A DNA stretch of 64,000 nucleotides, taken from the NCBI RefSeq assembly GCF_050920415.1, contig NZ_CP169309.1. One strand, written 5' to 3'. The notes under the pieces were generated by a model that worked only from the letters and a program-made list of their open reading frames with translations, had not been told where the DNA came from and did not search any database. Origin of the DNA: Escherichia coli. GTDB lineage: Bacteria; Pseudomonadota; Gammaproteobacteria; Enterobacterales; Enterobacteriaceae. The translations under genes were made by a program, and so were the position numbers. Shown here one piece after another: positions 34,933 to 39,613 of this stretch; the first letter of the stretch is position 1, and every line of letters begins with the position of its first letter.

Positions 34933-35820
34933 TCAGGCTGCCAGATCATTGTTTCCGATGGAAGCATAATAAGCTTTTTCTGCTTCTGCCGGAGGAGTAT
35001 GGCCCAGCCTTCCCAGCAATCGTCGATTGTTATACCAGTCCACCCACGTGAGTGTGGCCAGTTCCACTTCTGCACGGTTTTTCCAGCTCTTACGGTGTAT
35101 TACCTCCGCTTTGTAAAGACCATTGATGCTCTCAGCCATCGCGTTGTCATACGAGTCGCCTGTACTCCCTGTTGATGCCAGCAGTTTTGCTTCTTTTAGT
35201 CGCTCCGTATAGGCCAGTGACACATACTGAGAGCCTTTATCGCTGTGATGGATGGTGCCAGACGGACGACGGGCCCACAACGCCTGCTCCAGCGCATCCA
35301 GCACGAATGTCGTTTCCATAGACGATGAGACCCGCCACCCCACGATGTATCCGGCAAACACATCAATGATGAACGCCACATAGACGAAGCCCTGCCATGT
35401 GCTGACGTAAGTAAAATCAGCCACCCACAGCTGGTCAGGACGTTCTGCCACGAACTGACGGTTTACGCGGTCACCTGTGGCAACGGTTTTCCGGCTGACG
35501 GTAGTGCGGACCTTTTTACCCCGGAGAACACCGGCAAGTCCCATAACCGCCATGAGGCGCGCCACTGTACATCTGGCCACCCTGATTCCTTCCCGTAACA
35601 ACTGACGCCAGACTTTACGCACACCGTACACCTGATGATTTTCATCGTATACGCGCTGTATCTCTCTCTTCAGCCAGTCATCGCGCTGCGCACGGGCACT
35701 GCGTTTATCAGGATGATGCCGCTGCTGCTGACAATGGTAATACGTTGACGGGGCGATATGCAGTTCACTGCATACCGGTCCGACCCCGTACTGCTCACGC
35801 AGCTTATCCAGCAGTGGCAT
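34933..35820 (-). CDS. IS3-family transposase OrfB (DDE integrase domain)
   Basis: 295-aa ORF with DDE-type catalytic region; overlaps orfA end as expected for programmed -1 frameshift fusion. Confidence 0.85.
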   Translation of the reverse strand: MPLLDKLREQYGVGPVCSELHIAPSTYYHCQQQRHHPDKRSARAQRDDWLKREIQRVYDENHQVYGVRKVWRQLLREGIRVARCTVARLMAVMGLAGVLRGKKVRTTVSRKTVATGDRVNRQFVAERPDQLWVADFTYVSTWQGFVYVAFIIDVFAGYIVGWRVSSSMETTFVLDALEQALWARRPSGTIHHSDKGSQYVSLAYTERLKEAKLLASTGSTGDSYDNAMAESINGLYKAEVIHRKSWKNRAEVELATLTWVDWYNNRRLLGRLGHTPPAEAEKAYYASIGNNDLAA

Positions 35821-36146
35821 TATTTTTTCCAGAGGCGGTCGAACTCCGCCTTCGCAAAATAAGCGGAAGCCTGGCGAAGGATATCGTTACTGCGGCGCAG
35901 TTCACGATTTTCACGTTCCAGCTCTTTCAGACGCTGACGTTCAGCGGTGGTGAGCCCACCATCACCGCTCCCGGTATCCCTCTCATGCTGGCGAACCCAG
36001 ACACGCAGAGTCTCTGGCGTACAGCCAATCTTTGGAGCAATGGAACAAATTGCCGCCCATTGTGAGTCATATTCGCCCTGACTTTCCAGAACCATACGAA
36101 CTGCGCGTTGACGGACTTCGGGGGAAAAACGAGTATTTTTAGTCAT
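35820..36146 (-). CDS. IS3-family transposase OrfA (HTH)
   Basis: 108-aa [60 protein letters not shown]... Confidence 0.85.
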
Positions 36147-37112
36147 CCTGTTTACCTCTTTCTCAGGAAGTTTAGTCTCCAGGATTTCCGGGGCGGTTCA
36201 ATCCTTCAAAAGGTTGAACGTGAAGTTATGTCCTTTGTGCCTGATATCACAACGGCAAAGGGCAGAAAGGAGATCGCTTCTCTGGCGTATAAAGTTGCGC
36301 AGACGAAAACATATCTCGATGGTCTTGGCAAAGACCTTGTTGCTGAACTGAAGGAAATTCCAAAGCTAATTGATGCCAACCGCAAGACAGTGCGCGATCG
36401 CCTTGATGAGCTGAAAGCCAAGGCACGCCAGCCTCTTACTGATTATGAGGAAGAACAGGCGCGGATTAAAGCCGAAGAAGAAGCTAAGGCAGCAGCTGAA
36501 GCTCTCGCAAAGCAAATTGAGTCTGACCATGAAATAGCGATTTTGATGGATCGCGAATTTGACCGCCAAAGAGAAGAGGCAAGACTCAAAGCTGAGCAGG
36601 AAAAGCGAGAGCATGAAGAACGCTTAAAAAGAGAAGCTGAAGAGAAAGCAAGAGCAGAAGCCGAAGCAAAGGCAAAAGCCGAAATTGAAGCAGCCGCAAG
36701 GCGAGAAGCAGAAGCTAAGGCCGCAGCGGAACGTGCAGAGCGTGAACGCATTGAGGCCGAGCAACGAGCACAGCGCGAAGCAAAAGAGGCAGCAGAACGA
36801 GCTGAAAGAGAAAAGCAGGCAGCAATTGAAGCAGAACGCAGAAAAGCACAGGAGGAGGCTGAACGAATCCGTCGCGAGGCTGAAGCAAAAGAGCAAGCCA
36901 GAATCGCAGAAGAAAAAAGAATCAAGGACGAAGAAGAGCACAGAGCAAAGGATAAAGCTCACCGGAAAGAAGTAAATAACAAAATACTTGCTGACCTTAT
37001 CAAGGTTGGCGCATCAGAAGATGTTGCTAAAAATATCATAACAGCCATCGTAAAAGGCGAAGTATTCGCAACAAAAATAACCTACTAATAAAACCAACAT
37101 AAGGAACCACCC

Positions 37113-37635: not shown

Positions 37636-38343
37636 ATGGATTTGAATAAATTCGATGAGCCATTCAGCCCTGAAGATATCGAATGGCGAATACAGCAAAG
37701 CGGTAAAACACGCGATGGCAAAGTGTGGGCTATGGTGCTGGCTTATGTCACGAACCGGGCAATCATGAAACGCCTGGACGATGTTTGCGGCAAAGCAGGA
37801 TGGCGCAATGAATACCGCGATATTCCCAACAACGGCGGCGTTGAATGCGGCATATCAATAAAGATTGATTCCGAATGGGTAACCAAATGGGATGCTGCTG
37901 AAAACACGCAGGTAGAAGCCGTCAAAGGTGGTCGTTCCGGTGCAATGAAGCGCGCTGCCGTTCAGTGGGGAATCGGTCGGTATCTGTATAACCTTGAGGA
38001 AGGTTTCGCACAAACATCTCCCGATAAAAAGCAGGGGTGGCACAGGGCAAAACTGAAGGATGGAACAGGATTTTACTGGCTCCCTCCATCGCTGCCGGGA
38101 TGGGCAATCCCAGCATCAGATAACAAACCATCACCAGAAAATACCAACCAGAAATCTCCATCGGTTGACTGCGAACAAATCCTGAAAGACTTCAGCGATT
38201 ATGCATCAACAGAAACTGACAAGAAAAAACTCATCGAGCGTTATCAGCGTGACTGGCAATTAATGGCTGGCAACGAGGAGGCGCAGGCTAAATGCGTTCA
38301 GGTAATGAACATCAGAGTTAACGAACTAAAACAGGCGGCATAA
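37636..38343 (+). CDS. erf: Erf-like single-strand annealing recombinase
   Basis: 235-aa ORF; C-terminus ...ETDKKKLIERYQRDWQLMAGNEEAQAKCVQVMNIRVNELKQAA resembles P22 Erf C-terminus. Confidence 0.75.
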   Translation: MDLNKFDEPFSPEDIEWRIQQSGKTRDGKVWAMVLAYVTNRAIMKRLDDVCGKAGWRNEYRDIPNNGGVECGISIKIDSEWVTKWDAAENTQVEAVKGGRSGAMKRAAVQWGIGRYLYNLEEGFAQTSPDKKQGWHRAKLKDGTGFYWLPPSLPGWAIPASDNKPSPENTNQKSPSVDCEQILKDFSDYASTETDKKKLIERYQRDWQLMAGNEEAQAKCVQVMNIRVNELKQAA

Positions 38344-38817
38344 ATGGCAAGCAGAGGCGTAAATAAGGTGATCATTATTGGTCGCCTTGGGCATGATCCA
38401 GAAATCAGATATTCACCATCAGGAACGGCATTTGCAAACCTTACAGTTGCTACGTCAGAACAATGGCGTGATAAGCAAACTGGAGAGCAAAAGGAGCAGA
38501 CGGAGTGGCACCGTGTGGTAATGAGCGGGAAACTGGCAGAAATTGCCAGCGAATATCTGCGAAAAGGCTCTGAGGTTTATCTTGAAGGCAAATTGCGGAC
38601 AAGAAAATGGCAGGATCAAAGCGGACAGGATCGGTTCACTACCGAAGTTATCGTAGGCGTTGGTGGAACCATGCAAATGCTTGGTGGCAAGCAAGGAGGC
38701 AATGAACAGTCTTCACCTCAGCGAAATAACGGTCAGCAACAAAGACAGCAATCTCAGCAGCAAGGGAATCACAGCGAACCACCTATGAACTTCGACGATT
38801 CGGATATTCCGTTCTAG
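38344..38817 (+). CDS. ssb: single-stranded DNA-binding protein
   Basis: 157-aa ORF; OB-fold N-terminus, Gln/Gly-rich linker, acidic tail DDSDIPF. Confidence 0.9.
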
Positions 38818-38826
38818 GAGCTGAAT

Positions 38827-39306
38827 ATGAAAATCTGCTCAAGATGCCATCAACAGAAGGAAGAAAGGGACTTTCAAATCAGAAGAGCATCCAGAGATGG
38901 ATTAACTGCCGCTTGCCGGGCTTGCCTGGCTGAATATGACAAAGAGCGCGCGGGATTGCCACATCGAGTATCAGCAAGGAGAGAATATCAATCATCGGAA
39001 CGCGGCAGAGAACGGTGTAACGCAGCCAAAAAGCGGTTCATTCAGAGCAACCCATGGAAAAGAAAAGCCCACATCATCGTGGGTAATTTTTTGCGCGACG
39101 GTAAGCTAATCCGACCACCACAATGTGAGTGCTGCGGATCAGAATGTAAACCACAGGCGCACCACTGCGACTACAGCAAACCAACCGATGTGATGTGGCT
39201 CTGCAAGTCATGTCATGTCGAGTGGCACAAACATAACAAACCTATCTACCCAGACGAGGAGCCAGTAACTCTCCCCTTCCCTCGTCACGCTATTCACGCA
39301 ATTTAA
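38827..39306 (+). CDS. Cys-rich protein with C-terminal HNH endonuclease-like motif
   Basis: 159-aa ORF; CxxC pairs and HHCDYSKPTDVMWLCKSCHVEWH. Confidence 0.55.
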   Translation: MKICSRCHQQKEERDFQIRRASRDGLTAACRACLAEYDKERAGLPHRVSARREYQSSERGRERCNAAKKRFIQSNPWKRKAHIIVGNFLRDGKLIRPPQCECCGSECKPQAHHCDYSKPTDVMWLCKSCHVEWHKHNKPIYPDEEPVTLPFPRHAIHAI

Positions 39307-39319
39307 TCAGGAGAAAATC

Positions 39320-39613
39320 ATGCCAGCGCCTCAGTATGGTGCGGATGACCCGCGCCGCTGTTCCGGCAATTCCGTATCGGAGGTGCTGGATAAATTCAGG
39401 AAAAACTACGACCGGATAATGTCGCTACCGCAGGAAACGAAAGAGGAAAAGGAATTTCGTCACTGTATATGGCTTGCAGAGAAAGAAGAACGCGAGCGAA
39501 TTTACCAGACATCAATCCGACCATTCCGCAAAGCCACATATACCCACTTCCCTGAAATTGACCCGCGCCTGCGTAATTATCGATCACGCTATGGCGCTAT
39601 CAGTAATGACTGA
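39320..39613 (+). CDS. hypothetical 97-aa protein
   Basis: ORF-track entry in early-left operon. Confidence 0.4.

Follow-up and report, generated by a model that had tools for sequence, protein, structure and literature searches.

What is a small, cysteine-rich gene doing between the recombination genes of a prophage? In a 64,000-nucleotide stretch of Escherichia coli DNA (contig NZ_CP169309.1; hereafter the window), an open reading frame (ORF) of 159 codons with an ATG start, which we call ORF159, lies at positions 38827–39306 on the + strand, directly behind the single-stranded DNA-binding protein gene ssb and ahead of the anti-RecBCD gene abc2. The original prediction described its product as a zinc-binding HNH nuclease that might act in recombination, as a homing endonuclease or against the host. 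Among these roles our analysis favours homing: we consider it somewhat better than an even bet that ORF159 is a free-standing homing-type HNH endonuclease. It belongs to a large family whose Gram-negative-phage members are found behind genes that end in an SSB-type acidic tip, and its relatives show several marks of mobility.

The ORF list and the DNA confirmed the exact 159-amino-acid sequence, including its CxxC pairs (C4/C7, C30/C33, C100/C103 and C126/C129) and the C-terminal stretch HHCDY…LCKSCHVEWH, which reads A-H112-H113-C-D115-Y...L-C126-K-S-C129-H130-V-E-W-H134 when numbered. At E ≤ 1e-3 we found 77 related database proteins, and the nearest cluster held 1262 member sequences. Across an alignment of 44 homologues, C100, C103, H112, H113, Y116 and L125 were invariant, while C4, C7, C30, C33, D115, P119, C126, H130, W133 and H134 were at least 90% conserved and C129 was replaced by His in some members. 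Because of these relatives and the invariant or at least 90% conserved Cys and His residues, ORF159 is not a chance reading frame.

Structure prediction with AF2 (predicted local distance difference test, pLDDT, 93.9 overall, 97.2 for the C-terminal domain) describes a two-domain zinc protein, in which a Cys4 ribbon and a helical arm would precede a zinc-braced beta-beta-alpha-Me nuclease fold. The N-terminal half has strands at residues 16–18 and 26–30, followed by helices over 31–91. The ribbon itself (C4, C7, C30 and C33; 38836–38925, +) is indicated by Cys conservation, by the model and by partial PHROGs matches that are confined to it, with residues 1–55 or 1–69 matching phrog_2633 and phrog_5558 (1.6e-4 and 7.5e-7); it is probably part of the DNA-binding half. 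These PHROGs are annotated as Lar-like and endonuclease VII, and a full-length match to the T4 endonuclease VII family (PF02945) or to Lar-like restriction-alleviation proteins was found neither there nor in Pfam. The C-terminal half holds a catalytic-type core, C100-x2-C103...H112-H113-x-D115-Y116...D121...C126-x2-C129-H130...H134 (39124–39228, +), and the model places in it the beta-hairpin and helix that define the HNH superfamily, in which they enclose a catalytic metal. H113, in the place of the general base, stands at the end of strand 110–113 (44 of 44 sequences) and H134, in that of the metal-ligand His/Asn, on helix 127–136, a register relative to solved enzymes that we infer.

The top structural matches of ORF159 were active HNH nucleases. 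Compared with the solved zinc-finger HNH nucleases, namely the Gme HNH nickase (4h9d), Hpy99I (3fc3), the T5 SciA nickase (9qgx) and PacI (3m7k), ORF159 reads H-H...D/E...H where these read D-H...N...H/N, and it adds the N-terminal zinc ribbon and helical arm. These matches bear on the idea that ORF159 is a catalytically inert zinc-finger regulator that binds DNA or RNA and only resembles HNH. We regard this as very improbable: besides the nature of the structural matches, H112, H113, D115 and H134 occupy canonical catalytic or metal positions with little or no variation, a pattern that most of the tandem copies found in the family keep.

Sequence profiles gave a different picture from the fold. 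The Pfam search that the original prediction had proposed as a check detected no HNH domain in ORF159, an outcome that the prediction had named as refuting it, and returned only an insignificant zinc-ribbon match, NCBIfam and PADLOC gave no match to it, and two of 44 family members reached PF01844, at E 0.68. Searches of PDB with phmmer and hmmsearch, using full-length and domain profiles, found nothing significant (best E 0.15); the best sequence match, weak and aligned in register, was the T5 SciA HNH nickase. A precomputed HNH Pfam domain was present in none of about 200 homologues, and a domain-profile search for a bridge to Pfam-annotated relatives returned only unannotated proteins. The whole of ORF159 matched phrog_2340, 'endonuclease', at 2.6e-47. 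The zinc-binding HNH assignment is therefore backed by predicted fold, motif and phrog_2340, and not by any HNH sequence profile; fold and motif support membership of the HNH superfamily, in a clade that current sequence profiles miss.

That clade is large. An exhaustive profile search returned 39,383 representatives (50% clustering) at E ≤ 1e-3 and 26,509 at E ≤ 1e-10, and tblastn of 50,697 phage records located ORF159 homologues in 532. Some family proteins (P0197–P0213) carry two or three C-terminal domains in tandem, with the Cys/His signature mostly intact, and may be single-chain pseudo-dimers. Chimeric proteins also occur (P0011, P0014, P0024, P0053 and P0057). In some, an SSB N-terminus runs at a shared 'IVG' into the C-terminal half of ORF159, and in others ORF159 fragments are fused to a 3'-5' exonuclease or a helix-turn-helix (HTH) protein; all of them have the appearance of deletion or mosaic products from prophages in decay.

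The closest described relative is gene 26 of Shigella phage Sf6 (NP_958202; also in IME10, N7 and CurroJimenez), with 98.8% DNA identity, the same amino-acid sequence and the same order, erf-ssb-26-abc2. It is the same gene, with nothing of substance different, and ORF159 is an allele of it. Its record calls the product 'endonuclease' and remarks that 14 of its residues also occur in an SSB, yet the gene is left unannotated in E. coli genomes by RefSeq. For example, in E. coli L65 (NZ_CP034738; locus L110, 2492–2993) the 500 bp that separate ssb from the anti-RecBCD gene hold an intact ORF but carry no annotation, and the locus tags jump across them from RS08340 to RS08350; the same unannotated ORF159 is found in H87, H88, IME10 and N7.

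The position of the gene follows a rule. ORF159 starts 9 nucleotides past the ssb stop codon, in agreement with its reported place immediately after erf-ssb. The ssb codons for the acidic tip F-D-D-S-D-I-P-F, with their stop (38791–38817, +), form the left junction of the endonuclease gene and a candidate homing-site region. At the junction itself (TAG-GAG-CTGAAT-ATG, 38815–38829, +; ATT-CCG-TTC-TAG-GAG-CTGAAT-ATG with the last tip codons), AGGAG overlaps the ssb stop. Since this stop overlaps its Shine-Dalgarno sequence, ORF159 has the form of a cassette without a promoter of its own, coupled in translation to ssb. Local RNA structure at this junction was not significant (z -0.26). The same layout of IPF codons, stop, GGAG, about 6 nucleotides and ATG recurs at other loci.

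To survey this rule we used the best 80 of 587 IMG/VR matches, a sample that is for this reason biased toward the window's branch of the family. Among its 1191 ORFs of at least 70 amino acids, 54 ended strictly in a tip, and every one of these directly preceded the homologue in the same orientation, -4 to +155 nucleotides away. When junctions were read by eye with relaxed scoring, a tip was present upstream in nearly every locus having upstream sequence. The upstream tip-bearing proteins comprised at least three SSB families, a 405-amino-acid phrog_4477 protein and a primase/helicase. The SSBs were assigned to phrog_44 in L005, phrog_9002 in L004 and phrog_743 in L008, and annotated SSBs precede the homologue in Vibrio phages K72 and D288, Acinetobacter Silvergun, Murrayvirus ST231, Ralstonia GP4 and Pseudomonas PPpW-3. 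In all divergent Gram-negative-phage contexts that we opened, the upstream neighbour was an SSB-type acidic-tip protein (...D-D-x-I-P-F). The non-SSB contexts DU_PP_I, K54_rec4, GAP31, MPK9, KIL1 and PsgM04F were considered as exceptions and rejected, as all have tip-ending upstream proteins: the 405-residue protein of DU_PP_I ends ...DFDLDIPF, and those of K54_rec4, MPK9 and KIL1 end ...MDFDDQIPF, ...SSDIPF and ...DSDAPF, while in GAP31 the protein is the primase/helicase. Vibrio phage K228, where the upstream protein ends ...ADDIPAEM, is an ambiguous context. In the searchable literature we found no account of such a link between the family and acidic-tip gene ends.

Two observations concern the Vibrio phages in this set. 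The annotated SSB of D288 (L099, about 1380–1420) ends ...DFDDDRS at a stop that is followed in frame by GAC-ATC-CCG-TTC-TAA (D-I-P-F-stop), so that the tip appears to have been cut off by a 9-nucleotide insertion containing a stop. All ten D-series Vibrio phage records listed matched the ORF159 query identically.

A gene that keeps such company may be a partner of its neighbour. ORF159 could be an accessory recombination or replication nuclease that its SSB or primase/helicase neighbour brings in through the acidic tip, in the manner of host SSB partners, and that nicks or trims DNA to feed Erf annealing or replication restart, with the gene order reflecting co-expression of partners. We hold this role to be possible but unlikely. 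In its favour, the gene always adjoins a tip-bearing replication or recombination protein, often with translational coupling, and is located in Rec modules with Erf, Sak4 or AAA_24/Gp157. However, co-occurrence with a single-strand annealing protein, which is obligate for Rec-module nucleases of the lambda Exo / RecE type, did not hold. Many contexts have no annealing protein at all, among them GAP31 (where the gene lies between primase/helicase and DNA polymerase), DU_PP_I and K54_rec4 (by tail-fibre genes), KIL1 and the polA introns described below.

Discordance between the endonucleases and their neighbours also speaks against lasting partnership. In 191 locus pairs the endonucleases were at least 50% identical while the upstream proteins were unrelated, and the phylogenies of endonuclease and partner are strongly discordant. 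The window and locus L036, for instance, share 82% identity in the endonuclease and 27% in the SSB, and their shared DNA block runs from about 45–48 nucleotides before the ssb stop to about +430. Phage Huey carries an HK75-type ssb whose last ~30 nucleotides are of the window type, followed by an endonuclease gene (L003, 2180–2647) with a divergent, AT-rich N-terminal two-thirds (GC 0.36) that becomes near-identical to the window from about codon 105, an identity that runs on into abc2. This pattern indicates a recombination junction inside the Huey endonuclease gene.

Filled and empty sites could be compared directly. In HK75 and at least 18 other phages the order is erf-ssb-abc2, with no gene between ssb and abc2. 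The HK75-type SSB ends ...DFDDDIPF-APVTLPFPRHAIHAI before its stop, and this tail is in the same frame as the 3' end of ORF159. Conversely, ORF159 ends in a 14-codon tail, PVTLPFPRHAIHAI, which together with its stop (39262–39306, +) makes up 45 nucleotides that recur with 100% identity as the end of ssb in HK75, epsilon34, g341c, mEpX2, mEp235 and CP-1639, all without ORF159, and in about 300 E. coli genomes. Because these 45 nucleotides match in frame, the body of ORF159 sits exactly between the tip Phe codon and the tail. In L031–L035 the endonuclease ends ...PDE-APVTLPFPRHAIHAI. Across 5426 complete E. coli genomes, ORF159 was present in 97, and the tail fused to ssb only was found in about 300 others. 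A simple deletion from a Huey-like arrangement was considered as the origin of the HK75 tip-plus-tail SSB and rejected, because the tip codons differ at several positions.

A similar comparison was available around a non-SSB gene. The primase/helicases of PVP-SE1 and rV5 end at the tip (...MDEDTPF and ...EDDETPF), directly before pol; that of GAP31 has tip, tail (APIGLQYANHAIYAL) and then the endonuclease gene, with homology to PVP-SE1 resuming just before pol, and Seu621 has tip and tail without the endonuclease gene. Sporadic presence with exact filled and empty junctions, as expected of a homing gene, was thus found in both lambdoid phages and Vequintavirinae. The gene is also dispensable, since HK75, mEp235, epsilon34, PVP-SE1 and rV5 lack it at the same site, which again weakens the case for an accessory nuclease. 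Separately, an I-HmuI-like HNH endonuclease gene interrupts the PVP-SE1 primase/helicase gene (L107, 522–1229), which is a two-piece join. A mobile element of another kind is here inside the gene at whose 3' end the homologue lies in GAP31.

A further branch of the family lies within genes. I-KsaII, the homologue in Staphylococcus phages K, A5W and P4W (Herelleviridae), is 35% identical to ORF159 over residues 2–134 (E 2e-29) and is located within a three-piece polA whose intervening sequences have been described as predicted group I introns (PMC5618024). The likeness is full-length: both domains are shared, as is the C-x2-C...HH-x-DY...WLC-x2-CH...H core, and the nuclease role of I-KsaII is likewise predicted. 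I-KsaII differs in its location, a predicted group I intron that interrupts polA in the region of the Exo II motif, whereas ORF159 is free-standing behind ssb and has an additional 14-residue tail. Homologues occupy the same ...KVGHN| site of a split polA in Enterococcus phage 163 and in Bacillus phages SBSphiJ7 and BCP8-2, all likewise Herelleviridae. The A5W record and the literature place two group I introns in that polA region. Residence in self-splicing introns or beside conserved genes, a mark of homing genes, was therefore found in this family, with intron status as given in the literature (PMC5618024). The many members in polA introns are hard to reconcile with an accessory nuclease.

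They also bear on whether ORF159 might instead be directed against the host or its defences, or serve as a weapon in superinfection, as a nuclease that breaks down the DNA of host or competitor and does not further the copying of its own gene. A nuclease fold beside the anti-RecBCD gene abc2 in the early left operon would suit such a role, and HNH nucleases have such roles elsewhere (PMC12315714). It nevertheless offers no reason for the exact placement behind tip-coding ends in unrelated phages, nor for the intron-encoded relatives; no partner immunity gene is present, and PADLOC gave no match. We judge this explanation improbable.

Homing endonuclease genes beside SSB genes have a precedent. 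In T4, the free-standing endonuclease gene segG lies between genes 32 and 59 and has gene 32 as its target, and many of the T4 seg and mob genes have the form of promoter-less cassettes or are under the control of RNA structures (PMC2988022). SegG resembles ORF159 as a free-standing gene next to a phage single-strand-binding-protein gene, expressed within the neighbouring transcription unit (PMC2988022). It differs in having a GIY-YIG fold and a neighbour of the gp32 SSB family, and no link to acidic-tip coding sequence has been reported for it. Another positional parallel is ES18 gp47 (L098, 414–935), which fills the same slot in the order erf-ssb(...NFDDEIPF)-endonuclease-abc2. It is a Pfam-recognised protein (HNH_3 / zf-His_Me_endon; T7 gp7.7 / I-HmuI-like), unrelated to ORF159 in sequence (BLASTP E 9.6), and AT-rich, with a GC of 0.33 against 0.47–0.48 in the upstream erf and ssb genes. 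That an unrelated HNH_3 endonuclease fills the slot is another point against an accessory nuclease.

How might a homing endonuclease operate here? ORF159 would be transcribed from PL together with erf and ssb, with its translation coupled to the ssb stop. Its product would nick or cut alleles that lack the endonuclease gene, such as the tip-plus-tail allele of HK75 type, at or close to the 3' stretch of ssb that encodes the tip, and repair by recombination from an endonuclease-carrying copy would bring in the gene together with the last ~30–45 nucleotides of ssb, a step that neighbouring Erf and SSB functions could assist. The ORF159 locus itself would escape cutting because the gene splits or replaces the site. 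More tentatively, and at less than even odds, the free-standing branch as a whole may home to DNA that encodes the SSB-type acidic tip (...D-D-x-I-P-F-stop).

Several points weigh against homing, some of which favour the accessory nuclease. For the free-standing members, cleavage, a target site and biased inheritance are predictions of this reading, and near-universal adjacency to tip-bearing genes fits functional partnership equally well. Tightly packed HNH genes of Rec modules have been argued to be probably genuine module members (PMC12315714). Rfam found no group I intron at gathering threshold in the A5W polA locus (L009, 2397–7435). Because its GC is like that of its neighbours (0.49) and it is kept intact, at 97–100% identity, in many genomes including many E. 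coli prophages, ORF159 does not look like a degenerating selfish gene. Finally, the tail peptide, whether carried by the upstream protein or by the endonuclease, looks selected. The tails of GAP31 and Seu621 differ at 8 codons, 5 of them synonymously, and because the differences are mostly synonymous this comparison suggests possible selection on the peptide, for which the homing model has no explanation.

The tail is widespread. A 15-residue version follows the tip in the HK75 and L005 SSBs, the GAP31 and Seu621 primase/helicases and a 317-amino-acid protein of PsgM04F; in L005 and GAP31 its coding sequence extends over the start codon of the endonuclease gene. The C-terminal position of the E. 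coli SSB tip matters for partner binding, and a tail after IPF should mask this canonical tip. The HK75 tip-plus-tail ssb lies at 2039–2545 of L002, and about 300 E. coli genomes have prophage SSBs with 15 residues past ...DDDIPF.

The spacers between tip and endonuclease hold another element. A second copy of the I-P-F codons was present in 25 of 41 loci with spacers of at least 12 nucleotides, where shuffles gave an expectation of 0.44 loci, and a stop and GGAG often come after it, immediately ahead of the endonuclease ATG (L040–L095). Between the two copies lies a block, AATGGTATAMT, whose sequence complements the IPF codons; it forms stable hairpins (z -5.4 and -3.4) and matches an extended -10 element in 10 loci. 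The second copy and block may be left over as a footprint, or they may serve as a promoter, an autoregulatory operator or a coupling switch. A target-site footprint was considered for the second copy and set aside, since it is not separable from an RNA hairpin, a coupling device or a promoter. The window's own ssb/ORF159 junction has no second IPF copy, no AATGGTATAMT block and no hairpin.

The genes around ORF159 make up the early-left operon of a P22/Sf6-like prophage. An erf-like (Rad52-family) single-strand annealing protein gene (37636–38343, +; Pfam Rad52_Rad22 2.2e-25, phrog_1097 1.2e-129) precedes ssb (38344–38817, +), which encodes a bacterial-type phage SSB with canonical tip (Pfam SSB 1.7e-38, phrog_44). 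The right-hand neighbour of ORF159 is abc2 (39320–39613, +; Pfam Anti-RecBCD_p2 4.9e-63), followed by DUF7739, Ead/Ea22 and DUF551 genes. On the 5' side of erf lie a gp33-like gene (36108–37088, with a listed TTG start at 36108) and then small ORFs. Immediately 5' of the gp33-like gene is an IS3-family insertion sequence (IS; 34933–36146, -) with a 108-amino-acid OrfA (HTH_Tnp_1) and a 295-amino-acid OrfB (rve), which presumably resembles IS629/IS1203. The TTG start falls within the IS end, and the element may therefore separate erf-ssb-ORF159 from PL.

ORF159 itself is ordinary: it is a known Sf6 gene, as yet uncharacterised, that about 2% of complete E. coli genomes carry. The family behind it is not: with some 39,000 representatives, it escapes Pfam and NCBIfam and goes unannotated by PGAP, although fold and residues say HNH, and the positional rule behind acidic-tip genes spans unrelated proteins and hosts. 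For lambdoid phages, where the question has been whether Rec-module HNH genes have genuine functions or are passengers (PMC12315714), our data favour passengers over genuine recombination functions. For E. coli, prophage SSBs of the tailed kind carry a 15-residue extension over the canonical C-terminal tip. If homing to tip-coding DNA is true, the acidic tip, a short linear motif kept constant by protein-protein interactions and common to non-homologous proteins, could let one endonuclease lineage jump among unrelated genes and phages while always landing right after the Phe codon, and the 15-residue tail, the second IPF copy and the hairpin/extended -10 block would be junction or regulatory elements derived from the cassette, or scars of its gain and loss.
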